DNA of 64,000 nucleotides from an uncultured Candidatus Saccharibacteria bacterium (GTDB taxonomy: Bacteria > Patescibacteriota > Minisyncoccia > Phycocordibacterales > UBA5272), in the NCBI GenBank assembly GCA_964544935.1, contig CAZJDZ010000002.1, positions 30,668 to 94,667 of the forward strand. The letters are read 5' to 3'. The stretch's first letter is position 1. Each line of letters begins with the position of its first letter. The notes beneath the pieces are model-generated. The model was not told the origin of the DNA. It searched no databases and saw only the letters and a list, made by a program, of their open reading frames with translations. Below, in pieces: positions 1 through 32,246 of the stretch. The position numbers and the translations under genes were made by a program.

Positions 1-82
1 AAAAGAATTATATGCGCACTGAGTGCGTCTACCAATTTCAAAAACTGAGCTAGATTTATAAAGTTGTTCAAAAATAAAATAT

Positions 83-164
83 GCCCGGGTGGCGAAATTG
101 GTAGACGCACTTGCCTTAGGAGCAAGCGAGGTAACTCATGAAGGTTCAAGTCCTTTCCCGGGCA
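83..164 (+). tRNA. tRNA-Leu, anticodon UAG
   Basis: GCCCGGG acceptor paired with CCCGGGC. Anticodon stem cttgc/gcaag with loop cTTAGga gives anticodon TAG. Long variable arm and T-arm GAAGG-TTCAAGT-CCTTT. Near-identical in layout to E. coli leuW-type tRNA. CCA is not encoded. Confidence 0.9.
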
Positions 165-179
165 CAACATAAAAAATGA

Positions 180-203
180 GACATCTTTTGATGTCCATTT
201 TTT
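180..203. terminator. Short hairpin (gacatc/gatgtc) with an A-run on one side and a T-run on the other; terminator-like element after tRNA-Leu
   Basis: 6-bp stem with tttt loop, followed by cattttttt. Weak. Confidence 0.35.
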
Positions 204-218
204 AGTTGCGCCCGGGAA

Positions 219-310
219 GCAAGTGACCTGCGTCACTTGCGTAAGGACTTGAATAGGGGTCGCGAAGTCTTATATTTTGTAATCAAAATAGACTTGGTGA
301 CCAAGTCCTT
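219..310 (+). repeat. tRNA-adjacent structured repeat, copy 1: 5' hairpin GCAAGTGAC-ctgc-GTCACTTGC, then AAGGACTTGAATAGGGGTCGCG, a variable hairpin, then GGTGACCAAGTCCTT
   Basis: The 65-nt core is identical to 1041-1105. An outer helix AAGGACTTG/CAAGTCCTT encloses GGTC...GACC and an inner hairpin aagtct/agactt. The outer stem matches the T-arm of tRNA-Leu (TTCAAGTCCTT). Confidence 0.6.
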
Positions 311-413
311 ATGATTTTAGTATATTTTCATAAAAACTTGTAATTGCTGAATGGAAGATTTGATATCCTTTCTATATAACGAGAGTTCAGAAAGTCACGA
401 AATTGGAGCACAA

Positions 414-458
414 AATAATAAACACCCATTTGTAATCAAAATGGGTGTTTATTATTTT
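414..458 (+). terminator. Strong intrinsic terminator (aataataaacaccca / tgggtgtttattatt followed by ttg)
   Basis: ~15-bp perfect stem with a T-rich tail. The loop ttgtaatcaaaat recurs inside the variable hairpin of repeat copy 1. Confidence 0.6.
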
Positions 459-471
459 GCGAGCATTATAA

Positions 472-561
472 GCAAGTGACCTGTGTCACTTGCGTAAGGA
501 CTTGAATACGGGTCGGAAAATCATCTGTGACGCAGGAGCTGATTTTGTGACCAAGTCCCTT
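472..561 (+). repeat. tRNA-adjacent structured repeat, copy 2; same architecture, different variable hairpin aaaatca/tgatttt
   Basis: Keeps the 5' hairpin GCAAGTGAC-ctgt-GTCACTTGC, GTAAGGACTTGAATACGGGTCGG and GTGACCAAGTCCCTT. The inner hairpin has a different sequence but the same fold. Confidence 0.6.
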
Positions 562-574
562 GTCGTAATAGAAA

Positions 575-607
575 AATGCCCCACCGAAGCGGGGCTTTTG
601 GGTGGGG
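575..607. terminator. GC-rich hairpin with two alternative pairings (gcccc/ggggc followed by tttt, or ccccacc/ggtgggg), lying between convergent transcripts
   Basis: Read directly from the sequence; it sits just before the stop of the minus-strand ORF ending at 618. Confidence 0.45.
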
Positions 608-617
608 TGTGGTTCGT

Positions 618-920
618 CTACTTGATCTTGGCTTCATTCAGAAGCGCTTTGGCTGTTTCGATGTGTCCAGCCTGAAGCAGTCCGAAAAGATGTTGGTTGC
701 CATCCTGGATGGAGACAACAAAGTGCTTCTCAAGGTCTCCTTCTGAAAAGGTGACCTGGTAGACACTTTTCGGAAGAAATAGTGACTTGAAGTTGCGAAT
801 TGAGCAACGAACAACCCTCCATCCCTTTTTTTCTGCTTCTTCAAGAAGCAGAGCATACTCCCTGTCAGGTTTTTCGCTTGATGGGACAAGCAGGCTGAGA
901 AGTGCGAGTTCCAAAAACAT
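618..920 (-). CDS. Hypothetical 100-aa protein, moderately GC-rich
   Basis: ATG is preceded by a strong SD (acggaggt) and by TTGACA-N17-ATATAT on the minus strand. No family recognised. Confidence 0.5.
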   Translation of the reverse strand: MFLELALLSLLVPSSEKPDREYALLLEEAEKKGWRVVRCSIRNFKSLFLPKSVYQVTFSEGDLEKHFVVSIQDGNQHLFGLLQAGHIETAKALLNEAKIK

Positions 921-1040
921 TGAGTACCTCCGTAGGTAATAGTTTGAAGACCAAAATTACACAAATATAATATATCATACTATGTACATTTGTCAAGCAA
1001 TTTTCGCCTGAATTTACTTCTCTTTTCTGCTCTTTCTATC

Positions 1041-1107
1041 GTAAGGACTTGAATAGGGGTCGCGAAGTCTTATATTTTGTAATCAAAATAGACTTGGTGA
1101 CCAAGTT
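1041..1107 (+). repeat. tRNA-adjacent structured repeat, copy 3; lacks the 5' hairpin and its 3' end diverges (CCAAGTTCTC)
   Basis: Positions 1041-1105 are identical to 241-305, so this is a direct repeat bracketing 306-1040. Confidence 0.6.
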
Positions 1108-1118
1108 CTCACATTATT

Positions 1119-1589: not shown

Positions 1590-2651
1590 TCAGGCAGCGA
1601 GGGGTTCTCGCTTCGGTTCAAAGACCATGAGGTCGTAGCAGGCCTTGCTTGAGGCGCTGACGACACAGATGCGGCCAGTCGGGTTTCCCTGCGAGTGCTC
1701 GCGGAAAGCAACGGCAAGCGGCGTCTCCCAGGTCTTCCGCGCGGCGGCGACATCAGCACTGCTCTTGTAGAGCGGTACTTCCGTCGGAATCCCCCCGAGC
1801 TTGACCATGATGATGTCTTCTGCGCTCACTGCGAGCGTCATCGTGGAAGGCTTCAGGCCGGCTTGGTTCAGTTCCGACTTGTTGTCGGAGACTTCGGTCT
1901 CGCCACGGCGGACCTTCCTGTCTGTCAGGAAGAAGTAGCTCTTCGAGGCGCCTTCTGCATCAACGATGATGTAGTGTCGATCGCCGATGAGGCGAGGGAG
2001 TTCATCTTCCATGACCGGAAGGCCGCTGCGCTTTTCGCCGGTTGCCGTGTAGGCGACCTTGATCTGGCGGGCCAGCAGCTCTCTCGCGAAAGTTGCTCGC
2101 GCGGCCAGGCGTTCTTCACGTCGGGCATCAACCTCTGCGGTCCGCTGTGCCTGCCTTTCGAGGTGGGCTTGACGCTCGACTGCGAGACGCTCATCCACCA
2201 GGATCTGTTCGTTCTTGGTGAAATTGGGTTCGAGATCGAGGCCACGAGCGATTGCGATCTTCAGGTCGAGCAGTCGCTCGACCGAAGACCCTCCGACGAG
2301 TTTCGTCATGCCATTGACTGTGATCATGTGGGCCGTCTCGAAGTCTTGTGTCGGGAGCACCGACAGCACATACTTCGAGTTCAATCCGACGATGATCGGA
2401 CAGGGTTCGCTGTCGATTTCGATCAGGTCGGCAAACGGTCGGATACCGGAGGTCTGGAAAGTCCAGGCCTTGACGCCGTTCACCATGACCTTTGCCGGGC
2501 GGTAGCCGTCGTCGTCAGCACCGAAGAACTTGTCCGAACGGAACATCTGGAGTTCGATCTTGATGTCGTTGGGCGCCGTCCAAGAATGGACGATCTCGTG
2601 ACCCGCGTGGATCTTGAGTGCCGGCGAGACAGCGATGGTACGGGTGCTCAT
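1590..2651 (-). CDS. GC-rich hypothetical protein of ~353 aa starting MSTRTIAVSPAL; likely horizontally acquired
   Basis: The ORF track extends it to 2771 via a GTG that sits inside the promoter -10. GC content jumps exactly at the ATG at 2649-2651. A coiled-coil-like segment rich in Arg, Ala and Glu in the middle. No family recognised. Confidence 0.6.
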   Translation of the reverse strand: MSTRTIAVSPALKIHAGHEIVHSWTAPNDIKIELQMFRSDKFFGADDDGYRPAKVMVNGVKAWTFQTSGIRPFADLIEIDSEPCPIIVGLNSKYVLSVLPTQDFETAHMITVNGMTKLVGGSSVERLLDLKIAIARGLDLEPNFTKNEQILVDERLAVERQAHLERQAQRTAEVDARREERLAARATFARELLARQIKVAYTATGEKRSGLPVMEDELPRLIGDRHYIIVDAEGASKSYFFLTDRKVRRGETEVSDNKSELNQAGLKPSTMTLAVSAEDIIMVKLGGIPTEVPLYKSSADVAAARKTWETPLAVAFREHSQGNPTGRICVVSASSKACYDLMVFEPKREPLAA

Positions 2652-2762
2652 AGTGAATACCTTGCCTTTCTTGATGATCAATTCTTTGACCGGATTGTAG
2701 AGAACAACATATAGAAAGCTGGAGGCAACAAAGTTGCAAGCTACCTTACTTTCATGATTACT

Positions 2763-2790
2763 AGTATACACTAATTTATAAAATTGTCAA
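2763..2790 (-). promoter_or_regulatory. Minus-strand sigma70-like promoter TTGACA-N16-TATACT driving the GC-rich ORF 1590-2651; part of a duplicated ~45-nt promoter module
   Basis: The reverse complement reads atatacTTGACAattttataaattagtgTATACTagtaatcatgaaagt, near-identical to the module at 3995-4022. Confidence 0.5.
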
Positions 2791-2896
2791 GTATATTTTG
2801 GCTGGAAAAAGCAATTTTCTATATATATAAAATGGGTATTGAGCTTATTATATATTTCAAAATATAGAAAATAATCAATTTCGTCCCTGATGTATA

Positions 2897-2926
2897 TAAA
2901 AAAGAAAGAACCTCCGAGGAGGTTCT
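2897..2926 (-). terminator. Minus-strand terminator (gaacctcc/ggaggttc with a U-tract) after ORF 2962-3900
   Basis: Hairpin with an A-run at 2897-2907 on the plus strand. Confidence 0.5.
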
Positions 2927-2961
2927 TCACGCTACACATTGCATGCAGTGTTTGCCTTGGG

Positions 2962-3900
2962 TTAGGCAGCCACCATTTCGGTGGACTTCGACAGCTTGTC
3001 CAGCTTGGCGAGGATGTGGTCACGCAGCAGATTCGCATGCGTGAAGTACTCGTCGCCGAGTTCACGAGCAGCATCAGGGATGCCGGTCCCCAAGTCCTCG
3101 CTGTAGATCCAAAGGCCTGTGCGGACCCCATTCTTTGCGAGTGGGTGTTCCTCGGTCATGCTGATGACCGTGATGGTCATCTTCCCGTCGATGGGCTCTT
3201 GGACCACTACACATTGACTGCCTTGGTCGCCGGAGAAGCTGAAGCGACCGACAGTGTTCGAGGTGAACACCTTGATCGGCTTCAGGGTCTTCGTGTCATG
3301 GGTGGGCTTCACAGCCTGCCCATTGGAAGTTGCCAATTGAGGGCCGCCGTTGTGCTTGGAAGCGTTTCTGGCACGCTCTGCCTTGGCGAAGTCAATTTCA
3401 TGTGCGAGGTGTTCGCGCAGGAAGTTGAGCATCTGCTCTTGGATCTCGCCGCGCCAGCCGGAAAGCAGGTTGACCTGATCCGCCGGCTTGAACAGCCAGG
3501 ACAACGGAATGAAGACATCGCGGCACCCGAAGATGCCGAGGATGTCGGTCGCTTCCAGGTGGAGGGTCTCGACACGGTACGTGTCGTACACCAGCTGCCC
3601 GGTTTCGTCCATGTATCCGACGGCGTATTCGCCGTGGATGCCTGCGACCATGTTGCCGTAGAAGGAGCACATGTGCTCCAGCTCTGCCTGCGTGCGGATC
3701 GCCGCATCCTTGCGGGCTTGTTCGGCCAGCGCTCGGGAGCGCTCCGACTCTTGCATCAAGCGGGCAGCTTCACGGTCCTTGTTGGGGCGGTAGGAGGCGG
3801 GGATGGGGCCTTTCGGCTTCTTCGTGGCCACCGGTTCGGCGGTGCCACCCTTCTTGGCTGCCTTGGGTTGCTTTTTGGCTGGAATTTGCTTGCTCGACAT
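2962..3900 (-). CDS. GC-rich hypothetical protein of 312 aa with a Lys/Ala/Pro-rich N-terminal tail; likely horizontally acquired
   Basis: Start ATG preceded by AGGAG (gcaggagattcaaATG). Visibly GC-rich against AT-rich flanks. No family recognised. Confidence 0.6.
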   Translation of the reverse strand: MSSKQIPAKKQPKAAKKGGTAEPVATKKPKGPIPASYRPNKDREAARLMQESERSRALAEQARKDAAIRTQAELEHMCSFYGNMVAGIHGEYAVGYMDETGQLVYDTYRVETLHLEATDILGIFGCRDVFIPLSWLFKPADQVNLLSGWRGEIQEQMLNFLREHLAHEIDFAKAERARNASKHNGGPQLATSNGQAVKPTHDTKTLKPIKVFTSNTVGRFSFSGDQGSQCVVVQEPIDGKMTITVISMTEEHPLAKNGVRTGLWIYSEDLGTGIPDAARELGDEYFTHANLLRDHILAKLDKLSKSTEMVAA

Positions 3901-3994
3901 TTGAATCTCCTGCGCAATGTTTCAGCGCGTGGTGGATTGAAAGGTTCAACGAGAAAGAGTCTGGGGCTTGCCGCGGACAACTTTCATGTATTAT

Positions 3995-4022
3995 AGTATA
4001 CACTAATTTATCAAAATGTCAA
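3995..4022 (-). promoter_or_regulatory. Minus-strand promoter TTGACA-N16-TATACT for ORF 2962-3900; second copy of the promoter module
   Basis: The reverse complement reads atatacTTGACAttttgataaattagtgTATACTataatacatgaaagt. Confidence 0.5.
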
Positions 4023-4030
4023 GTATATAA

Positions 4031-6762: not shown

Positions 6763-7052
6763 GGCAAGAATTATATTGAAACAAGTAACTACAATAAATC
6801 AAAAAAAAGAATAGTCCTGTGTATAGAGATTGTATCATGTGTATAAAGATGGGTGTGAATAGAGATATATGGCTTAAGTCGCTTTAGGTACAATGCAAGC
6901 CTCACGTTCTTTCTGGGGTATTTTATAGCAACGAGAAACGACATCAGGAACTGACATGGAAAGGAAGTCGCCGTTTTAAAAGTGCAAAGTTGTACGAATA
7001 TAAAATTGATATTGCTGCGCTATAAAAGTTGACAAAAATAAATTATAAGTTG

Positions 7053-7082
7053 ACAAAAGTTCTGTTGTTCATGTACACTGAA
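7053..7082 (+). promoter_or_regulatory. Candidate promoter (TTGACA-N18-TACACT) for the small peptide gene at 7205
   Basis: Tandem TTGACAAAA boxes at 7030 and 7053. Weak. Confidence 0.3.
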
Positions 7083-7204
7083 CCGCGAGTTACTCAAAGA
7101 AACTGCGTTTCTTTACATGAAGTAGAGAAGAACAGAAAGGAGAAAACTTCAGTTCTTTGTGTTCTCGTGGATAAAACTCCCAACGAAATAGAAAGAGATC
7201 TGAT

Positions 7205-7486
7205 ATGCCACCAATGAAACACATCTCGATGATGGCTGCTGCAGTTGCCATGCTGGCGGGTGCTGCCATCCCGGTCTCGGCCAAGTCGACACCGGACACC
7301 CTGAGTGCCCCGGATCTGCCGGCACCCATGCCTCAGCCGGTGATGGTCGCGCCACCGTCTTTCCAGGACTCCGCACCACCTCCTCCGAGCGGCCCACCCA
7401 AGGCTGCCGATGCGGTCGAGGTGATCATGCCGCCTCCGGCTTTCGTCACAACTGACACCAGCCAGGATGATCAAGTGACCCTCTGA
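7205..7486 (+). CDS. GC-rich small secreted Pro-rich protein, 93 aa, with a signal peptide
   Basis: N-terminal hydrophobic stretch MMAAAVAMLAGAAIPVSA followed by Pro-rich low complexity. Intrinsic terminator immediately after. Confidence 0.55.
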   Translation: MPPMKHISMMAAAVAMLAGAAIPVSAKSTPDTLSAPDLPAPMPQPVMVAPPSFQDSAPPPPSGPPKAADAVEVIMPPPAFVTTDTSQDDQVTL

Positions 7487-7501
7487 GGCAACTTGGTCCC
7501 C

Positions 7502-7529
7502 AGCCCCACCATCACGGTGGGGCTTTTTA
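7502..7529 (+). terminator. Intrinsic terminator (agccccacc-atca-cggtggggct followed by ttttt)
   Basis: 9-bp GC stem plus T-tract. Confidence 0.7.
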
Positions 7530-7573
7530 TGTTATATAATGCCGTCTGGTTTTATTGTTATCAGATAAAAAAC

Positions 7574-7596
7574 TTGACAAATACTTTATATATGAT
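7574..7596 (+). promoter_or_regulatory. Promoter-like cTTGACAaatactttatatatgat; spacing to the -10 is ambiguous
   Basis: Perfect TTGACA. TATGAT sits only 11 nt away, so an alternative -10 is possible. Confidence 0.35.
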
Positions 7597-7600
7597 AGGG

Positions 7601-7719
7601 TGTTTTTTGTCGCTCAAGAACTGAGCGATACGGGCGGAACCATCTTTGGTTCCGCATAGTTGTCAATGTAGCGACCGTTGGTCTCGCAACCACGTTAGCC
7701 ACTACCCAAGGAGAGAACG
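7601..7719 (+). promoter_or_regulatory. GC-rich 5' leader; its last ~60 nt are paralogous to the leader at 8576-8635 and include the RBS (ggtctcgcaaccacgttagccactacccaaggagaga)
   Basis: About 36 of 40 nt identical to the other leader just before the ATG. Contains the hairpin ggaaccatctttggttcc. Confidence 0.45.
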
Positions 7720-8166
7720 ATGATCAAGAAGATGATGATGTATCTCGCAGCCATGGTTGCTGCCTTCACCTTCGCCGTGCCCGCGGCGTTCGCAGCTCCC
7801 TCCAACACCAACGAGAGCTTCTCGTTCCGTGAGACGGTGCAGCCGCCTTCGGTCTGCTCGTGCAAGTGGAAGGGGTGCACCTTCGGCTGCAAGCCGAAGG
7901 CACTCGCTGATGACCTCAAGGCGCTGATGGCGCAGGAGGTTGCGGTTGCTTCCGAGCAACAACCGGACGGCCGAAGGAAGCCCACGCGCTGCTCGGGCCC
8001 GACGTGCATCCTGAAGGGCTCAGCTGCCGACCCCATGGTCACTTCCTTTGTCGACAGCTTCATGCCGGCCGATTCCCTGGATCCGGACGGCCGAAGGAAG
8101 CCCACGCGGTGCATCAGCAATCCGAAGTGCACCCGTGCCAGTTTGGAAGGCTCCACGTCGAGCTGA
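7720..8166 (+). CDS. GC-rich secreted Cys-rich small protein, 148 aa, with a signal peptide and two copies of the motif PDGRRKPTRC
   Basis: Signal peptide MIKKMMMYLAAMVAAFTFAVPAAFA. Eight Cys residues. 26-nt internal DNA repeats at 7963-7988 and 8083-8108. Confidence 0.6.
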   Translation: MIKKMMMYLAAMVAAFTFAVPAAFAAPSNTNESFSFRETVQPPSVCSCKWKGCTFGCKPKALADDLKALMAQEVAVASEQQPDGRRKPTRCSGPTCILKGSAADPMVTSFVDSFMPADSLDPDGRRKPTRCISNPKCTRASLEGSTSS

Positions 8167-8215
8167 TCCACGTGCACTGGATGATCAAGAAATCTTTTAC
8201 AGGATGACTTGATCT

Positions 8216-8252
8216 CCAACCCCACCCATCAGGGTGGGGTTTTTCTTTTTTT
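8216..8252 (+). terminator. Intrinsic terminator (aaccccaccc-atca-gggtggggtt followed by tttcttttttt)
   Basis: GC stem plus a long T-tract. Confidence 0.7.
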
Positions 8253-8406
8253 ATAGATACGTGTATGAGTAGATATTTGAATTATTTTTATAGTTTTTAC
8301 TATTATTGAATACAGTTATCAGCTAATGTTTGTCTTGAAAATTCATAAAAAGTGTATATATAATAATGTTTTTAGTTGATTATAATCATTTGTCAACGTA
8401 AGGTGC

Positions 8407-8434
8407 TTGACAAATATTTTGTATATGCTATACT
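8407..8434 (+). promoter_or_regulatory. Sigma70-like promoter TTGACA-N16-TATACT
   Basis: cttgacaaatattttgtatatgcTATACT. Confidence 0.5.
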
Positions 8435-8436
8435 AC

Positions 8437-8635
8437 ATCTTGTCGCTGGATAGTCGGTAGCGTAAGCCCGTAAGGGAATCGCCTCCAACATCCTTTGCCT
8501 GCTGGTCATTCAAGGCCTGCCGGCGTCGCCGCGACGTTGAGCGGCGGGGTCACCTGACCTTGCCGCGACAGTACCTTCCACAACGGCAACCGTCGGTCTC
8601 GCGACCACGCTAGCCACAACCCAAGGAGAGAGACC
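8437..8635 (+). promoter_or_regulatory. GC-rich ~200-nt 5' leader; its 3' end is paralogous to the leader at 7601-7719 (ggtctcgcgaccacgctagccacaacccaaggagagagacc)
   Basis: Conserved RBS-proximal block. Internal hairpin cgccgcgacgttgagcggcg. Confidence 0.4.
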
Positions 8636-8776
8636 ATGAACCGTCTGACCCATGCCCCGCCGACCAGTACCCATCTGAGTCATACCTCCGGCACCAAGAT
8701 CCTGGGCCTGTCCGCCTGCACCTCCGCCAAGCTGGCCGCCGCCGGCGCCCGAACGCCGGCCTCCGGCATCAGCTGA
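8636..8776 (+). CDS. GC-rich 46-aa peptide (MNRLTHAPPTSTHLSHTSGTKILGLSACTSAKLAAAGARTPASGIS); possibly lipobox-like (LSAC)
   Basis: ATG immediately after the conserved leader/RBS. Too short to appear in the ORF track. Speculative. Confidence 0.35.
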   Translation: MNRLTHAPPTSTHLSHTSGTKILGLSACTSAKLAAAGARTPASGIS

Positions 8777-9045
8777 CCGGTCGCGTTGGCCAAGCACATC
8801 GTCGCAGGCGGCTCATTGAAAGCGTTGTGAACTCTGTTCACTCCACTTGTCTTTGGCCGCCTGCGCGATGAACTCGCCGCACTGCGCGCGCTGCTTGCGT
8901 GCCACGGCCTCAGGTGGTCTGCCTCGAGACATCTGTAGGCGGTCCGCGGCGAGTGTCTCCGCCCCCCGAAGCCCATCTCGGCGGGGTAACCTCGGAGCTA
9001 GTTAACTTAGGACTAGCGTCATTCCGAAAGACCTGAAAGACTAAG

Positions 9046-11686: not shown

Positions 11687-11732
11687 CAGAACGCAGACTT
11701 TGCAGACTACTGCAGACGTAATACATAAGTTA

Positions 11733-11762
11733 AAAGCGGCGCCGTAGGTGCCGCTTTTATTT
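11733..11762 (+). terminator. Intrinsic terminator (aaaagcggcgcc-gtag-gtgccgctttt)
   Basis: GC stem plus T-tract. Confidence 0.65.
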
Positions 11763-12028
11763 GTCATTTTATATTGATTTGTCAAGTTGACTATCATGCC
11801 ATAATTTGAGAATGTAAAGATACCTACTCAGTAAAAGTAGGTATGGTTCTTATCCTGAAATGACTGCTTATCCACCACGACTGCTAGACGTTATTCTGCT
11901 ACACTGTATATGTATTTGAAAGATATAGTTCGTCCGTTTTGTAGTAATTATGTATTAGTAGTTTGTGTTTACTTTATTAGATTTTTTGAATCAGCTAATG
12001 CCTAAAGGCTACAACCTAATAGTTATCT

Positions 12029-14891: not shown

Positions 14892-14975
14892 GCGTCGGTG
14901 GTGGAGTGGTCAATCACAACAGACTGTAAATCTGTCGCCCTTCGGGCTTCGAAGGTTCAAATCCTTCCCGGCGCA
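14892..14975 (+). tRNA. tRNA-Tyr, anticodon GUA
   Basis: Acceptor gcgtcgg/ccggcgc. Anticodon loop ctGTAaa. Long variable arm typical of bacterial tRNA-Tyr. T-arm GAAGG-TTCAAAT-CCTTC. CCA is not encoded. Confidence 0.9.
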
Positions 14976-15020
14976 CTGAATGAAAAATACCTAAGTAACA
15001 ACTTGGGTATTTTTCATTCA
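14976..15020. terminator. Long AT-rich hairpin (ctgaatgaaaaatacc...gggtatttttcattcag) directly after tRNA-Tyr
   Basis: ~15-bp stem; a processing or termination element. Confidence 0.45.
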
Positions 15021-15034
15021 GCTCTGCCACAGAG

Positions 15035-15128
15035 GCAAGACAACTGCTTGTCTTGCGAAGGATTTGAATACGGGGTCGCGGAGCTTCTTCGACGAACGAA
15101 GTGAGGAGGAGCTCTGTGGCCAAATCCA
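15035..15128 (+). repeat. tRNA-adjacent structured repeat, copy 4, covariant: 5' hairpin GCAAGACA-actgct-TGTCTTGC, GAAGGATTTGAATACGGGGTCGCG, variable hairpin gagct...agctc, GTGGCCAAATCC
   Basis: Same architecture as copies 1-3 with compensatory changes. The outer stem now matches the tRNA-Tyr T-arm (TTCAAATCC). Confidence 0.55.
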
Positions 15129-15235: not shown

Positions 15236-15268
15236 ACAAAAAGAAACCCGCCTAACTGCGACGGGTTC
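15236..15268 (-). terminator. Minus-strand terminator (aacccg...cgggtt with a U-tract) after ORF 15308-15862
   Basis: Hairpin plus an A-run on the plus strand at 15236-15244. Confidence 0.5.
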
Positions 15269-15307
15269 CGTGCGGTTGGCGGGTGTGTTCAGACTTGAAT
15301 GAACGGA

Positions 15308-15862
15308 TCAGACGGTGCGACGAATGGTGAACACGTCGTAGCGTTGAACTCCCAGATGGTGAACGCCTAGGGTGGTATAGTCAACCAACTTGGTTTCCTT
15401 CTGCCACTCGTAGCCTGATGGAAGAGTGTCGAGCGTCCCATCACTTGCACGTGGGTAGTTCACATCGTTCGAGTGTTCACTTTTGTCGTAATACTCCAGC
15501 AAGAGCGGACCACCAGTGGAAAGACCACCGTCACTAACGTGACCACCAGATTTGTAGTGGCCATGCGACCCCTTCCAAATCCTTATCTGGTACATCCCCC
15601 GCTTGTGGGGATCACCGTTGTGATAGGTGTCCTTCTGGTGAGGGCGGGTGATCATGATCTGGTCAAGCGGGAGCGTCTCCATGATGATGCGCCATCCGCT
15701 GGAGAGCTGGCCCTTGTTGGACTTCTGCCGAAGGGTTTCCAGCGTCCCAGTTCTCAAGACATCAGCGAGAAGCCCTGACTCGAGAACTTGCTGCGTTTGT
15801 TCTGACGAGATTTCCTTGAGCATGTCAAGGATCTTGGCTGCTTGGGCGAGGGTGGTTTTCAT
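15308..15862 (-). CDS. Hypothetical 184-aa protein, higher GC than the flanks; island gene next to tRNA-Tyr
   Basis: Clean ORF, SD ggagaaagtaaaggactggtATG. No family recognised. Confidence 0.55.
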   Translation of the reverse strand: MKTTLAQAAKILDMLKEISSEQTQQVLESGLLADVLRTGTLETLRQKSNKGQLSSGWRIIMETLPLDQIMITRPHQKDTYHNGDPHKRGMYQIRIWKGSHGHYKSGGHVSDGGLSTGGPLLLEYYDKSEHSNDVNYPRASDGTLDTLPSGYEWQKETKLVDYTTLGVHHLGVQRYDVFTIRRTV

Positions 15863-21328: not shown

Positions 21329-24300
21329 ATGAAAGCAAATCCATTTTTGATTACGCAAAATCAACAATCCCCCCATGTAAATTTGTATAGGACAAAAAGA
21401 AATAGAATATTGTCTTTTATACAAATATGTGTACTCTTCGTAGCCCCTCTCTTTACAGGAGGTGTGCAGTCTGTTTTTGCAGAAGGAGAGGCAACACCTG
21501 TTATTAGTTTTTCTCAAGTTTCTGATATAGCTATTCCAGCAACAGATACTTCTGGTGCAATTGTTAGTTATACTGCTCCAACTGCATCTGAATATGATGA
21601 AACTTCAGGAAACACAAACAATCTTCCTGTTGCTTGTATTCCAGATACTGGAACATTGTTTTCGATGGGCTCTACTTCTGTTACTTGTACAGCAACAAGT
21701 CAAATAGATAGTGGAATCACCTCATCAGTGTCTTTTACTGTTGCTGTTGCGGATATGAACGCTCCAGTAATTACCATCACCGGATCTTCATCAGAAACGC
21801 TTACTGTTGGTGACATATTTGTTGACCAAGGAGCAACAGCACTTGATGATGTTGACGGAGACGTTACTAGCTCTATTACAAGTTCAAGTACTGTGGATAC
21901 AGCAATGATTGGATCATATGCTGTTACATATGCTGTCTCTGATATAGCGGGTAATATGTCATCTCTTGTTCGAAGTGTTGAAGTTGTAGCTTCTTCTTCA
22001 GATAACCAAGCAACATCCACAGTTGATATTTTCTCTTCAGTTAATGGCATGGGAGATATTACTCCCAACGGAACAACAACTCTAAATCTTGGAGATTCAC
22101 AAACATACACAATAACACCTCAAGATGGTTATAAAATAGACAAGCTTGTTATTGATGGACAGGATACTAATGCTACAACAAGTTATACATTTGCCTCGAC
22201 TACAGAAAGTCACACTATAACAGCTTTCTTTTCACCGATAAGTCAAGGAGGTGGAGGAGGTTCCCAAGATGTTCCACCAGTAGGCCCAACTACTGCATCA
22301 AGCTCAACTCATGTAATAAATGCTACAAGTAGTGTTCATGATATTAGTGTTGAATGGGACATGGCGACAGGAACACTTCCAGTTAGTGGTTACTCGTATA
22401 TTTTTGACAGCAGTGCATCTAGTTCACCTGATGCAGTTATTGATACTGACGGTCTATTTGCTACAAGTACTCTCGCAGATGGGGAGTGGTACTTCCATGT
22501 TCAAGCAATTGATAGTAATGGAAATATAGGAATTGTTCTTAGTGTTGGTCCATATATCATTCAAACTGACTCAACTTCGACTGACACCACTTCTCCAACT
22601 ACACCTGTACCAACAGTTGTACAAACAGGATCAAGTACAGCCACACTCTCGTGGACTACATCTACTGATGATGTTGCTGTTGTCTCATACCTCTATGGAT
22701 TCTCTACATCATCTGACACACTTCCTACCACACTTGTCTCTGGCACAACAACATCAGTTGATGTGACTCTAGAAGACGGTATCTGGTATGCATCCGTACA
22801 AGCAGTTGATGCTGCAGGGAATGCTTCTCTTGTTGGAACAACAACAAGTTTGGTTGTGGATACGGGAAGACCAGTGATTACCCTAAACGGTACTTCAACA
22901 GTTACACTCTACCTCCATGATTCCTACACAGAACAAGGAGCAACTGCATTTGATGATATCTATGGAGACATAACTTCATCAATACAAATGCTTGGTAGTG
23001 TTGATACAGACACAGTAGGTGATTACACCATTACGTATGTTGTTACTGATGCTTCAGGAAACATTGCAAATCCTGTTGTGCGTACCATTCATGTGATTGC
23101 AGACACCACTTCTCCAACTACACCTGTACCAACAGTTGTACAAACAGGATCAAGTACAGCCACACTCTCGTGGACTACATCTACTGATGATGTTGCTGTT
23201 GTCTCATACCTCTATGGATTCTCTACATCATCTGACACACTTCCTACCACACTTGTCTCTGGCACAACAACATCAGTTGATGTGACTCTAGAAGACGGTA
23301 TCTGGTATGCATCCGTACAAGCAGTTGATGCTGCAGGGAATGCTTCTCTTGTTGGAACAACAACAAGTTTGGTTGTGGATACGGGAGCTCCAACTGCAGT
23401 AACAAACATCAGTGGATCAGTTCCTTTGTCTTTACCGACAGATACTCATGATATTACTGTTACATGGAGTCCTTCGTTCGATGGTATTTCGGGAATACAA
23501 GGGTACTCATTTGTTTTTGATACAAATAGTAGTACCACTCCTGACGGTATTATTGATGTAGCCACAACAAGTGCGGCAGTAACGCTACCGTATGGGACAT
23601 ATTACTTCCATGTAAGATCAGTTGATGTTTTGGGGAATGTTTCAGCAGTAGAGCATTATGGGCCATTTGTTTTATCAGAAACAAATATTACCATTACTGA
23701 TTCGACATATAACGGTACATATTATTCATTCTATTCACCTACTAGACAAGAAGGAATAGATCTTGGAATTACGGGAGATACACGTATTAGTAATTCTGTT
23801 ATCAGTAGTTCTACCGTTGCTAGTTCAGAGATAGCTTCAAGTACTGTTACTGATAGTGAAGTAGTAGACTCTGTCATTTCGGGAGCATCTATTGTAAGCA
23901 GTATTCTTCGGTTTCTTAATGGAGTTAACGCAGTAATACAGAATAATCTTGTTACATCCGGTACCTTTATTTTGCCAACAGGGAATGCTTACACTGTAAC
24001 AACCCCAGTTGCAGTTGATGAGATTGCTAATGATAAACCGCAAGCTGGGTTTAGTGTATCTGGGTATGATTATAGCTTGCACTTCAAAGATACTAGTTAT
24101 GATAGAGATGAAAACGAAGGAGTCTTTAACGATAGATGGACCATCTTTATAGATTTTGGAGATGGTACAACATTCTCAACGACTACGAGTACTTTGGGAC
24201 TGACAATCGATCACACATATGCACGATCTATTCAGTACAATGTACTCTACCGAGTTACAGATATACAAGGAGAGTCCTCGTCTGTAACACAGGCTATAAC

Positions 24301-24685
24301 GTTAGCATTTCCATCACCTCCATCGGTGTATACAATAGGAGGTGGAGGAGGATGGTTTTCTTCAGATGTTTGGTTTAAACCTGAGAACGCCACAACGTCT
24401 CCTATGGTTCTTGAAGAAAAAAATCTACCAGCTACTTCTACGCTACAGATCGTAACAAAAAGTAAGATGGGGAATGTGCGAAATAAAGTAACTTCTCTGC
24501 GAACAAAAGTTATGGCAGTATCTAATCCAACAAAACACTCATCTGATTTGTATGCAAATGCATCAACTCCAAAAGAGAATGGTACAGATACAGTAAGTGC
24601 TGTGGCTCCCGGAGTGACTACAAAAACATCTTCAAACTTTTTCCTAAAAGTTTTAGGAAAAGTAAAGAGTTTCTTGGGATTCTAA
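21329..24685 (+). CDS. Giant secreted/surface protein of 1118 aa, rich in Thr, Ser, Val and Asp, with repeated Ig/HYR-like modules; putative adhesin
   Basis: N-terminal signal/anchor. Repeated motifs (VTYxVSD/VTDxxGN, LSWTTSTDDVAV) and a perfect internal module duplication. Confidence 0.75.
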   Translation: MKANPFLITQNQQSPHVNLYRTKRNRILSFIQICVLFVAPLFTGGVQSVFAEGEATPVISFSQVSDIAIPATDTSGAIVSYTAPTASEYDETSGNTNNLPVACIPDTGTLFSMGSTSVTCTATSQIDSGITSSVSFTVAVADMNAPVITITGSSSETLTVGDIFVDQGATALDDVDGDVTSSITSSSTVDTAMIGSYAVTYAVSDIAGNMSSLVRSVEVVASSSDNQATSTVDIFSSVNGMGDITPNGTTTLNLGDSQTYTITPQDGYKIDKLVIDGQDTNATTSYTFASTTESHTITAFFSPISQGGGGGSQDVPPVGPTTASSSTHVINATSSVHDISVEWDMATGTLPVSGYSYIFDSSASSSPDAVIDTDGLFATSTLADGEWYFHVQAIDSNGNIGIVLSVGPYIIQTDSTSTDTTSPTTPVPTVVQTGSSTATLSWTTSTDDVAVVSYLYGFSTSSDTLPTTLVSGTTTSVDVTLEDGIWYASVQAVDAAGNASLVGTTTSLVVDTGRPVITLNGTSTVTLYLHDSYTEQGATAFDDIYGDITSSIQMLGSVDTDTVGDYTITYVVTDASGNIANPVVRTIHVIADTTSPTTPVPTVVQTGSSTATLSWTTSTDDVAVVSYLYGFSTSSDTLPTTLVSGTTTSVDVTLEDGIWYASVQAVDAAGNASLVGTTTSLVVDTGAPTAVTNISGSVPLSLPTDTHDITVTWSPSFDGISGIQGYSFVFDTNSSTTPDGIIDVATTSAAVTLPYGTYYFHVRSVDVLGNVSAVEHYGPFVLSETNITITDSTYNGTYYSFYSPTRQEGIDLGITGDTRISNSVISSSTVASSEIASSTVTDSEVVDSVISGASIVSSILRFLNGVNAVIQNNLVTSGTFILPTGNAYTVTTPVAVDEIANDKPQAGFSVSGYDYSLHFKDTSYDRDENEGVFNDRWTIFIDFGDGTTFSTTTSTLGLTIDHTYARSIQYNVLYRVTDIQGESSSVTQAITLAFPSPPSVYTIGGGGGWFSSDVWFKPENATTSPMVLEEKNLPATSTLQIVTKSKMGNVRNKVTSLRTKVMAVSNPTKHSSDLYANASTPKENGTDTVSAVAPGVTTKTSSNFFLKVLGKVKSFLGF
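22583..22867 (+). repeat. 285-nt perfect direct repeat, copy A, inside the surface-protein gene
   Basis: Identical to 23102-23386; offset 519 nt, i.e. 173 codons. Confidence 0.9.
23102..23386 (+). repeat. 285-nt perfect direct repeat, copy B
   Basis: Identical to 22583-22867. Confidence 0.9.
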
Positions 24686-31730: not shown

Positions 31731-32246
31731 TTATTTATTTTTCGGTAGTGTACTTGTGCTTTCTTCAGAGTGTTCTTCTTGAATCTCTTCCACATCTTCC
31801 TGAATCTCATCAACATCTTTTTGAATCTCTTCCACATCCTCCTGAATCTCATCAACATCTTTTTGAATTTCTTCGATATCTTCCTGAATCTCTTCATGAG
31901 CTTCTTGAATTCCTTCTACATCTTCTGCGATCTCGCCAACATCTTCTGCGATCTCCTCTACATCTTCCGCAATCTCGTCAATTTCTTTTTCAACACTTGC
32001 GATAGCACGTGCTTGGTAGTTGACACTAAGTTGAATGAAGATTGAGAGATAAATTGCCTCAAGCGAGAGTACTGTTGTGAGTACAAGAAGCACCCTGTCG
32101 AAGTCAAAACCAAACAAAACAAGCGCGAAAGCACTAATAAATAAAATGGTATGGATGATGACGGAAGGTACTGAACCAACACCTCGAGTTACCGAAAGAG
32201 CCAGTGTTTCCAAGCGATTAAGAGGAATTGTAGACATAGTTTCCAC
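31731..32246 (-). CDS. Membrane-anchored acidic heptad-repeat protein (two N-terminal TM helices, then ~10 copies of EIxEDVE)
   Basis: Translation shows EIAEDVE, EIQEDVE and EIQKDVD heptads. The DNA has 21-nt periodicity. Confidence 0.6.
   Translation of the reverse strand: METMSTIPLNRLETLALSVTRGVGSVPSVIIHTILFISAFALVLFGFDFDRVLLVLTTVLSLEAIYLSIFIQLSVNYQARAIASVEKEIDEIAEDVEEIAEDVGEIAEDVEGIQEAHEEIQEDIEEIQKDVDEIQEDVEEIQKDVDEIQEDVEEIQEEHSEESTSTLPKNK
31770..31990. repeat. Tandem 21-nt repeats (about ten units) encoding the acidic heptads; they lie inside the CDS and are not an array
   Basis: Read from the sequence: ttcctgaatctcatcaacatc and variants. Confidence 0.7.

Follow-up and report, generated by a model that had tools for sequence, protein, structure and literature searches.

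Folded modules behind the tRNA genes of Patescibacteria: an apparently undescribed family of possible small insertion units

Introduction

What are the folded, tRNA-matched repeats that stand directly behind the tRNA genes of a Saccharibacteria genome, and do they act as DNA or as RNA? The question is raised by a stretch of 64,000 nucleotides from an uncultured Candidatus Saccharibacteria bacterium (GenBank assembly GCA_964544935.1, contig CAZJDZ010000002.1, positions 30,668 to 94,667; this whole stretch is called the window, and its positions are used below). An initial annotation, made from the letters of the window, had described four structured repeats of about 90 nt next to tRNA genes and had offered three readings of them: (a) att-site scars of integrative elements that target the tRNA T-loop, (b) a processing or regulatory RNA that mimics the T-arm, or (c) a tiny mobile element. 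We found that these folded modules of about 95 bases behind the tRNA genes of Patescibacteria, or candidate phyla radiation (CPR) bacteria, are apparently an undescribed family. Their fold is widespread, covarying and strand-asymmetric, they are placed behind tRNA genes, they carry direct and inverted copies of the tRNA tail, they form arrays, and they are replaced or inserted between strains. We read them as small non-autonomous insertion or recombination units at tRNA 3' ends that act at the level of DNA, a reading to which we assign a probability of roughly 45% and whose mechanism we infer.

Architecture and covariation of the module

Two tRNA genes were called in the window, and four copies of the repeat were found in it, all on the + strand; the single architecture that the initial annotation had drawn for them was the minimum free energy fold each time. 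A copy consists of a 5' hairpin (hp1) and a P2 module, the latter made of an outer helix (P2a), a 7–8-nt loop GAATA(N)GG on the 5' side only, an inner helix (P2b, GGTCGC/GTGACC) and a variable hairpin (P2c). The conserved block of the repeat matched the window four times, versus a chance expectation of 0.08. The tRNA genes, the copies and the parts of the units to which the copies belong are as follows.

83..165, + strand: tRNA-Leu(TAG) (ARAGORN, Rfam RF00005)
147-165, + strand: last 19 nt of tRNA-Leu, CAAGTCCTTTCCCGGGCAC, copied and mirrored by the units downstream
169..207, both strands: bidirectional terminator palindrome of unit 1, between an A-tract and a T-tract, terminator-like either way
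208..218, + strand: GCGCCCGGGAA, complement of the acceptor 3' strand of tRNA-Leu (TTCCCGGGC) (direct sequence reading)
219-310, + strand: copy 1 as a whole, hp1 plus P2 module
219..240, + strand: hp1 of copy 1, a 9-bp hairpin with a CTGC loop (fold, covariation)
241..310, + strand: P2 module of copy 1 (fold, alignment)
243-250, + strand: P2a 5' strand of copy 1, AAGGACTT
251-257, + strand: asymmetric loop of copy 1, GAATAGG
258-263 and 297-302, + strand: P2b of copy 1, GGTCGC paired with GTGACC
265-295, + strand: variable hairpin P2c of copy 1
303-310, + strand: P2a 3' strand of copy 1, AAGTCCTT
405..458, + strand: GGAGCAC, a displaced remnant of the tRNA-Leu 3' end, then the terminator palindrome of unit 2, the older one
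472..561, + strand: copy 2, with hp1 at 472-493 and the P2 module at 494-561
1040..1109, + strand: copy 3, P2 module only, without hp1, 99% identical to 240-309
14892..14976, + strand: tRNA-Tyr(GTA) (ARAGORN, Rfam)
14977..15020, unstranded: terminator-type palindrome after tRNA-Tyr (sequence reading; the same architecture stands behind other tRNAs)
15035..15127, + strand: copy 4, with hp1 GCAAGACAA/TTGTCTTGC (sequence reading, fold)

Copies 1 and 3 had been described as direct repeats with 65 identical nt. The direct repeat is real, but it is 70 nt long at 99% identity (240-309/1040-1109), and copy 3 abuts the 3' end of a DUF5670 gene.

The fold z-scores of the window copies ranged from −4.4 to −8.9, and the + strand was more stable than the − strand by 6–11 kcal/mol. 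Further copies exist well beyond the window: a covariance model built from 24 copies in relatives matched 80 copies (70 distinct ones) in 44 loci of Patescibacteria/CPR (designated below by L and a number). In the alignment of the 70 distinct copies, which was fitted to the covariance model and is hence biased toward that structure, 94.2% of the pair cells were paired, versus 75.4% in shuffles and 32–48% with slid partners, and 22 of the 30 pairs showed changes on both sides (double compensatory changes). No shuffle or slid register came near 94%, and a separate MAFFT alignment of 24 copies gave the same picture. The helix covariation that the initial annotation had proposed from the window is thus strong in the relatives, and this includes the 5' hairpin: all nine pairs of hp1 covary, with 96.8% of the cells paired across the 70 copies, around a loop that reads CTGC in 50 of them and CTTC in 8.

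P2b is nearly invariant, with its G·T(U) pair kept in 68 of the 70 copies. Because a near-invariant G·T in GGTCGC/GTGACC is kept, the tRNA-sense strand is the one that folds; the invariant pair and the + strand energies both point to this. The core sequence hardly changes between distant CPR classes.

Position behind tRNA genes and distribution

The modules follow tRNA genes. Among 89 nhmmer hits, 56 lay no more than 100 nt downstream of a tRNA gene and on its strand, with a typical gap of 50–65 nt from the tRNA end to hp1; 18 stood in tandem behind another copy, 6 more within 1.5 kb, and none lay beside a tRNA in the opposite orientation. At least 14 tRNA species are concerned: Leu (four anticodons), Asp, Met, Ser, Arg, Cys, Thr, Tyr, Lys, Val and His. 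In loci that were selected for holding a copy, 56 of the 107 tRNA genes were followed by one.

Nine hits were orphans, several of which sit at locus ends. Two others, L045 and L139, represent one region, in which ARAGORN overlooked the tRNA ahead of the unit: at L045 1-330 a tRNA 3' end, GCGGGTTCAATTCCCGCCACCTCCAC (296-321), stands ahead of a complete unit, and ARAGORN calls no tRNA there. The upstream 290 nt may be a tRNA intron of the kind reported for Patescibacteria, whose tRNAs can carry introns in the anticodon loop (PMC13011429). A link between the units and such group I introns was considered and dropped, as introns of the anticodon loop are not relevant to the units. The orphan of L028 lacks its upstream tRNA. 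There, a Tyr-type unit with the full displaced tRNA-Tyr tail (TAATCCAGCCCGGCGCAC) lies at 2100-2320 behind a tRNA remnant that reads GCGCAC only, next to genes that are located at 31-37 kb in the window; the unit appears to have moved, or its tRNA to have been lost.

A pattern scan with one genome per species found true members only in Patescibacteria/CPR assemblies, labelled Saccharibacteria, Nomurabacteria, Paceibacterota or Parcubacteria; the other matches were due to chance and lay inside unrelated, mainly high-GC sequence. A stricter pattern recovered 21 metagenome loci. In IMG/VR, the core pattern matched 11 times, each time by chance within unrelated sequence, and no family member was present; blastn in distant mode found no match in phage and plasmid collections. 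No family of Rfam 15 matched the window copies at the gathering threshold or at E up to 10, apart from a chance overlap of sau-5971 with copy 1 at that relaxed limit (18 bits versus a threshold of 90). The tRNA models (Rfam RF00005, ARAGORN) called only the two true tRNAs of the window and none of the copies, even at E up to 10, and no description of these repeat units was found in the full-text literature.

Direct and inverted copies of the tRNA tail

From T-loop position C56 on, the neighbouring tRNA is copied directly in the P2a 3' strand. In copy 1, this strand together with C302 forms a 9-nt copy of the tRNA-Leu tail from C56 on; downstream of copy 4 the direct copy of tRNA-Tyr amounts to 7 nt only. 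In 13 of 43 tRNA-adjacent copies the direct identity extends over 19–25 nt and takes in the acceptor 3' strand, the discriminator and sometimes bases beyond, and in the others it ends after 3–17 nt. The P2a 5' strand is the complement of this direct copy. Compared with positions C56–N65 of its own tRNA, it was complementary at a mean of 8.1 of 10 positions, and at nine or more in 18 of 30 copies, versus a mean of 5.7 of 10 for non-cognate tRNA species, where 3% reached nine; the outer helix of copy 4, GAAGGATTTG, is complementary to CAAATCCTTC of tRNA-Tyr at 10 of 10 positions. Thus the outer helix does track the neighbouring tRNA, as had been claimed. The accompanying idea, of a T-arm split by an insert, failed: the 5' strand complements the T-loop and the 3' half of the T-stem and is not the tRNA's own T-stem 5' strand, for which reason both a split T-arm and a tRNA intron were rejected.

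A second complement, to the acceptor 3' strand, is often found upstream of hp1. It pairs with the discriminator and with the first trailer bases too, and the 5' leader of the tRNA differs, so the tRNA 5' end is not its source. Of 95 tRNAs, 23 were followed by an exact complement of 8 nt or more, versus 1.2% in mismatched controls. Terminator palindrome and acceptor complement together form one long perfect palindrome that reaches into the tRNA; in unit 1, segment 208-218 prolongs the terminator palindrome into tRNA-Leu in this way. When the whole unit was folded as single-stranded DNA with the tRNA tail, the tail paired with its split complement, with the terminator hairpin and hp1 as branches (−57 to −59 kcal/mol, z about −12 to −13), and the palindrome at 169-207 became the apex of a long hairpin.

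The layout is, accordingly, direct tail, terminator palindrome, inverted tail (from T54 to the end), conserved hairpin and direct tail (from C56 on). A complete unit measures about 150–170 bp and is non-coding. The inverted tail spans T54 to the discriminator plus 1–3 nt, and hp1 usually splits it at the boundary between acceptor and T-stem. Variants include an unbroken inverted tail without hp1 (L150 unit 2), extra hairpins after TTGAA (L150, L138, L020), a second core type (L031, L086, L150) and an inverted tail without any module (tRNA-His in L057, tRNA-Val in L138), and all of them keep the same slots in the layout. The initial annotation had missed the second complement (208-218), the terminator within the unit, the restriction to Patescibacteria and the range of at least 14 tRNA species.

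Could such palindromes arise with no dedicated mobility machinery at all? By template switching (quasi-palindrome extension or tandem inversion duplication), the terminator and module hairpins would each grow outward by copying the opposite flank, and the products would pass from genome to genome by DNA uptake and homologous recombination, with the tRNA and the tail repeat as arms. The acceptor complement is indeed continuous with the terminator palindrome and includes trailer bases that are not part of the tRNA, perfect arms of about 30 bp occur in at least nine tRNA species, and the variants that lack hp1, or hp1 and module alike, would fit, as would the inverted copies upstream of tRNAs described below. 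The layout also agrees with that of tandem inversion duplications (direct, inverted and direct segments at palindromic junctions), an agreement that concerns architecture only. What template switching leaves unexplained is why the same hp1 and core occupy the same two slots in at least 14 tRNA species and in distant CPR classes, and why covarying stems are under selection together with invariant loops. We regard it as rather unlikely.

Inverted copies are also seen on the other side of tRNA genes. In the window, 22-38 (AGTGCGTCTACCAATTT), upstream of tRNA-Leu, is the reverse complement of 95-111 in the D-arm region of tRNA-Leu, and 11 of 91 tRNAs in CPR loci have a 10–19-nt inverted copy of the D-arm or anticodon arm 40–70 nt upstream. 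L155 carries at 11711-11770 a direct fragment of the tRNA-Leu 5' part, GCTCGGGTGGCGAAATTGG.

Terminators, promoters and the case for an RNA

The covariation raises the possibility of a functional tRNA-like RNA, made by read-through of the terminator or from an unrecognised promoter. In it, an acceptor-like helix would be stacked on P2a, with hp1 in the place of the variable arm; it could be a substrate of RNase P, RNase Z, the CCA-adding enzyme and perhaps a synthetase, and could serve as a decoy, a regulator or a processing signal tied to the cognate tRNA. The strong covariation, the invariant G·U, the conserved YUGC tetraloop, the better folding of the sense strand and a core that is near-constant across distant CPR classes are what such an RNA would be expected to display, and L043, L064, L045, L020-His and L151 have intact acceptor strands with a discriminator, and a three-way junction.

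Other observations run counter to it. A strong, long bidirectional terminator with a T-tract separates the tRNA from the element and leaves about 12 nt for a promoter; none was found in that gap, and the only promoter hits fall within modules of a single subtype. Most copies have a decayed acceptor helix. Tandem copies that are truncated and mosaic, and more than one unit type behind a given tRNA, do not resemble a housekeeping RNA gene, and the copies match neither an Rfam family nor the tRNA models. On read-through, moreover, the complement would compete with the tRNA's own folding. Given the strong terminator and the lack of a promoter in the gap, a functional RNA, which was reading (b) of the initial annotation, is the less likely case, and we doubt it.

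Turnover, arrays and strain comparison

Units are exchanged and accumulate at a given tRNA gene. Behind tRNA-Asp, one unit type is present in L078 and L012 and another in L086 and L101; in L011, a unit of the L086 type is inserted between tRNA-Asp and a unit of the L078/L012 type, with a 23-nt repeat, CAAATCCCATCGACCGCGCAAAA. Since the direct repeat of L011 is perfect and the complement on its left degenerate, the flank now on that side did not serve as the template of the repeat, a point against template switching. L150 contains an array of up to five units; the junctions of truncated units fall in the hp1 loop or close to it. In the window, 405-458 is the displaced start of the older unit that holds copy 2, and the homologue of this segment lies directly behind tRNA-Leu(TAG) in L071, L073 and L150.

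A sister strain (L155), 97.8% identical to the window over 8.4 kb, has neither copy 1 nor copy 3. Its single unit has a P2 module 98.5% identical to that of copy 2, with an unrelated terminator and hp1. The relative L161 has one unit, in the orientation of the window. Copy 3 is absent from both strains, whose homology to the window stops exactly at 1039, and the breakpoints fall at the border of hp1 and P2a (window 240 and 1040). Reading (c) of the initial annotation, a tiny mobile element, was in part right: there are units of about 150–170 bp without an integrase, in arrays and with insertion polymorphism.

The segment with tRNA-Leu, its unit or units and an ORF (open reading frame) of 100 aa (window 1-1110) is inverted in L155 (11700-12600). 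In L161 (4880-5720), the tRNA-Leu segment is oriented as in the window. The flanks of the inverted segment are 97.8% identical. Inversion of a segment between sister strains is a further point for template switching.

The 100-aa ORF lies between copies 2 and 3 and stands beside tRNA-Leu in the window, in L155 and in L161. This constant location marks it as a resident neighbour that cannot be shown to be cargo, and a role as a mobile cassette was rejected on the ground that its homologues hold the same site by tRNA-Leu in related strains. Genes between modules elsewhere are unrelated to each other and include a trypsin-like peptidase, YecM and a putative methyltransferase.

The island beside tRNA-Leu (1590-3996) is hypervariable. 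In the window it consists of two ORFs of 55–58% GC in a genome of about 39% GC, one of 393 aa (− strand) and the other of 312 aa (− strand) or 368 aa (+ strand), none of which (393, 312 or 368 aa) had a Pfam or PHROG match. Both are preceded by the same 49-nt promoter-like block (TTGACA ... TATACT; 2748-2796 and 3980-4028). In L155, the same place, between rbfA and the DUF5670 gene, is taken by two unrelated ORFs of 57% GC (306 and 453 aa). Near the second tRNA gene, an ORF of 184 aa and 54% GC (15308-15862, − strand), for which no family match was found, is convergent on copy 4, with a GC-rich terminator at 15243-15269. Three Logan contigs with this ORF end just past the repeat, which suggests that the repeat breaks assemblies.

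Search for a recombinase and for free forms

A third possibility is that the copies are decayed attR scars of kilobase-scale islands or prophages that had their own tyrosine integrase and have lost their interior. The repeat from the T-loop to the tRNA 3' end is present, as in integration of the T-loop class, and the window copies border foreign-looking genes of 54–58% GC that vary between sister strains. Uniform units of about 150–170 bp with a conserved covarying fold, and one module for many tRNA species, are not what such scars would leave behind.

Nor was an integrase encountered. Among 105 ORFs neighbouring the copies at the 44 loci, the 25 most recurrent of 74 Pfam families, a set that could miss a single occurrence, included no integrase or transposase, these families being housekeeping only (for example IF-2, RbfA, GatA amidase and pseudouridine synthase). 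The cargo, island and window ORFs tested against Pfam and PHROGs gave no recombinase either; the cargo and island ORFs matched a trypsin-like peptidase, YecM, NUDIX or nothing. A loose motif scan for tyrosine recombinases across all window ORFs flagged only the 393-aa ORF, which had no family support. The remark in the initial annotation that no integrase is visible thus extends to the tested ORFs and to these neighbour families. No free, circular, phage-borne or plasmid-borne copy was found in IMG/VR or in the phage and plasmid collections. We consider attR scars improbable, the least credible of the readings weighed here: of reading (a), the direct repeat of the tRNA 3' end was borne out, and a plain att scar of an integrase-borne element was not found.

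Units acting on DNA at tRNA 3' ends

How might units of this kind work on DNA? On the tRNA-sense strand, the inverted tail would pair with the direct tail within one strand, and this pairing would rebuild a duplex image of the 3' end of the tRNA gene beside a conserved hairpin for recognition by a protein. Recombination or insertion could then take place through this folded site, at the T-loop (about C56) of the tRNA gene that it matches. An incoming unit would bring a replacement 3' end and a terminator and would push the old 3' end downstream as a direct repeat; since the 3' end and the terminator are replaced, the tRNA would stay intact in this proposal. Repeated events would build arrays, and recombination between modules would prune, duplicate and invert segments. 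The catalyst would act in trans and may be a conserved host enzyme. Alternatively, RecA-type recombination after DNA uptake could do the same, with the conserved tRNA and the 19–25-nt repeat as arms. A more specific form of the proposal is a target-matched element, whose site would be set by a built-in stretch of about 20 nt complementary to the tRNA 3' end, with a folded single-strand image of the target and a host enzyme; we hold it to be rather unlikely.

Several points weigh against insertion or recombination units that act on DNA. The searches for an integrase, transposase or other recombinase, and for free copies, came back empty within the scope given above. Some of the "cargo" between modules consists of conserved resident genes, such as the 100-aa ORF. 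The acceptor-type helix, formed by the segment before hp1 and the downstream repeat, was only 48% paired in 24 copies, and only about one tRNA in four is followed by an exact complement (at least 8 nt) of its own 3' end. One family for at least 14 tRNA species presupposes a suitable replacement 3' end for every one of them, and a simple site-specific mechanism leaves the origin of new specificities unexplained. Lastly, the conserved pair of the G·U type and the conserved tetraloop would be no less typical of an RNA.

Comparison with known systems

Integration of the T-loop class classically leaves a repeat that extends from the T-loop to the 3' end of the tRNA, and a scheme of sublocations for integration within tRNA and tmRNA (transfer-messenger RNA) genes was reportedly set out by Williams in 2002. 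The tandem ssrA islands of Dehalococcoides are an example of integration at the T-loop sublocation (PMC3146451). Like such islands, the units have a direct repeat from the T-loop to the 3' end, leave the gene intact and form tandem arrays with older repeats outward; the 19–25 nt from C56 in 13 of 43 copies, and the unit inserted in L011 relative to L078 and L086, conform to this. The islands differ in carrying their own integrase, whereas the units are too short to encode anything: they are 150–170 bp of non-coding DNA with a covarying hairpin arm and an inverted tail, found at the said range of tRNA species.

The attC sites of integrons resemble the units in fold. Both have a conserved structure with variable stems, of which one strand folds well, and this structure is an imperfect hairpin of two short helices with an asymmetric unpaired stretch and a variable terminal hairpin; both occur in arrays that sometimes bracket single genes. 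The core boxes of attC (RYYYAAC/GTTRRRY, R''/R') are absent from the units, in which the base helix AAGGAYTTG ... CAARTCCTT varies with the tRNA. No IntI or attI was recognised, in that Phage_integrase is missing from the 25 most recurrent of the 74 neighbour families and from the tested ORFs, and the arrays start at a tRNA. Unlike attC sites, the units are anchored at tRNAs, their outer helix matches the local tRNA, and their loop and inner helix are conserved in sequence; unlike integron cassettes, some of the genes between sites are resident neighbours.

In integrative mobile elements exploiting Xer (IMEX) such as CTX-phi, which use the XerCD of the host, a folded single strand rebuilds the target duplex with a bulge, and a single-strand mechanism of this sort would be the counterpart proposed for the units. 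These elements likewise have no recombinase of their own and form tandem arrays at one conserved site. Their target differs, being dif and not a tRNA 3' end, the units carry no genes, and no Xer-arm consensus was recognisable in the units by eye.

Small mosaic hairpin repeats offer another parallel. Repetitive extragenic palindromic (REP) sequences and bacterial interspersed mosaic elements (BIME), palindrome-associated transposable elements (PATE) and miniature inverted-repeat transposable elements (MITE) are non-coding, lie after terminators and depend on an enzyme in trans (the REP-associated tyrosine transposase RAYT, or the TnpA of IS200/IS605). In IS608, the guide and cleavage sites have an arrangement like that of the units, in which sequence 5' of a conserved hairpin pairs with a site 3' of it. 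The units differ from REP and PATE in their complementarity of about 8–20 nt to the local tRNA, in their long direct repeats and in their strict position behind tRNA genes. Long tRNA-matching repeats and the lack of a fixed target tetranucleotide set them apart from the PATE and REP-RAYT elements of the IS200/IS605 type; no HUH enzyme was identified for the units, and no search for RAYT elsewhere in these genomes was made. They do not conform to MITEs either: their inverted segments are the local tRNA tail and are tRNA-specific, and the repeat length is 7–25 nt.

Finally, tRNA-like structures (the tRNA-like domain of tmRNA, viral tRNA-like structures and mascRNA) share with the units an acceptor helix with a discriminator on a helix of the T-stem type, and a side hairpin. 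In the units, the T-loop is replaced by an arm of 50–60 nt, D and anticodon arms are missing, the tRNA covariance model does not call them, and they stand behind a terminator. Because a defining feature of attC sites (core boxes and IntI), of T-loop islands (an integrase of the element's own) and of REP/PATE (fixed ends and a fixed target) was looked for and not found in each case, we filed the family under none of them; by analogy, its kinship would be with small hairpin elements mobilised in trans or with tRNA-targeting insertions.

Why the family matters depends in part on what it is. Minimal genomes of Patescibacteria keep many copies of the module, and about half of the tRNAs in the sampled loci carry one behind them. 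If the units are insertion elements, they would be a route of DNA turnover at tRNA genes without an element-borne enzyme, by way of a folded site that copies its target, and would bear on the choice of sites by integrons, IMEX and recombinases that recognise hairpins, as well as on the entry of foreign genes into these genomes. If the target-matched form were true, this would be a tRNA-anchored system like an integron or IMEX that accretes units and occasionally captures genes. If they are RNA, they would make a new, strongly covarying class of tRNA-linked structured RNAs, represented by more than 80 examples. In both cases the module can readily serve to mark the variable regions next to tRNA genes in CPR assemblies, where it probably also causes contigs to break.

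Other features of the window

The window otherwise has a low GC content of about 38–40%, with GC-rich patches of 54–67%, and its housekeeping genes include those for IF-2, RbfA, ClpB, superoxide dismutase (SOD) and enolase. Both strands of a patch of 56–67% GC at 7000-9000 hold overlapping ORFs; two small proteins of this patch (7205-7486 and 7720-8166) are predicted to be secreted, and repeats occur within it (7671-7716/8586-8631 and 7963-7992/8083-8112). A perfect direct repeat of 285 nt (22583-22867 and 23102-23386) lies inside an ORF of 1118 aa (21329-24685), and a 21-nt periodic repeat of at least 11 units (31732-32025) lies inside the ORF at 31731-32246 (− strand).

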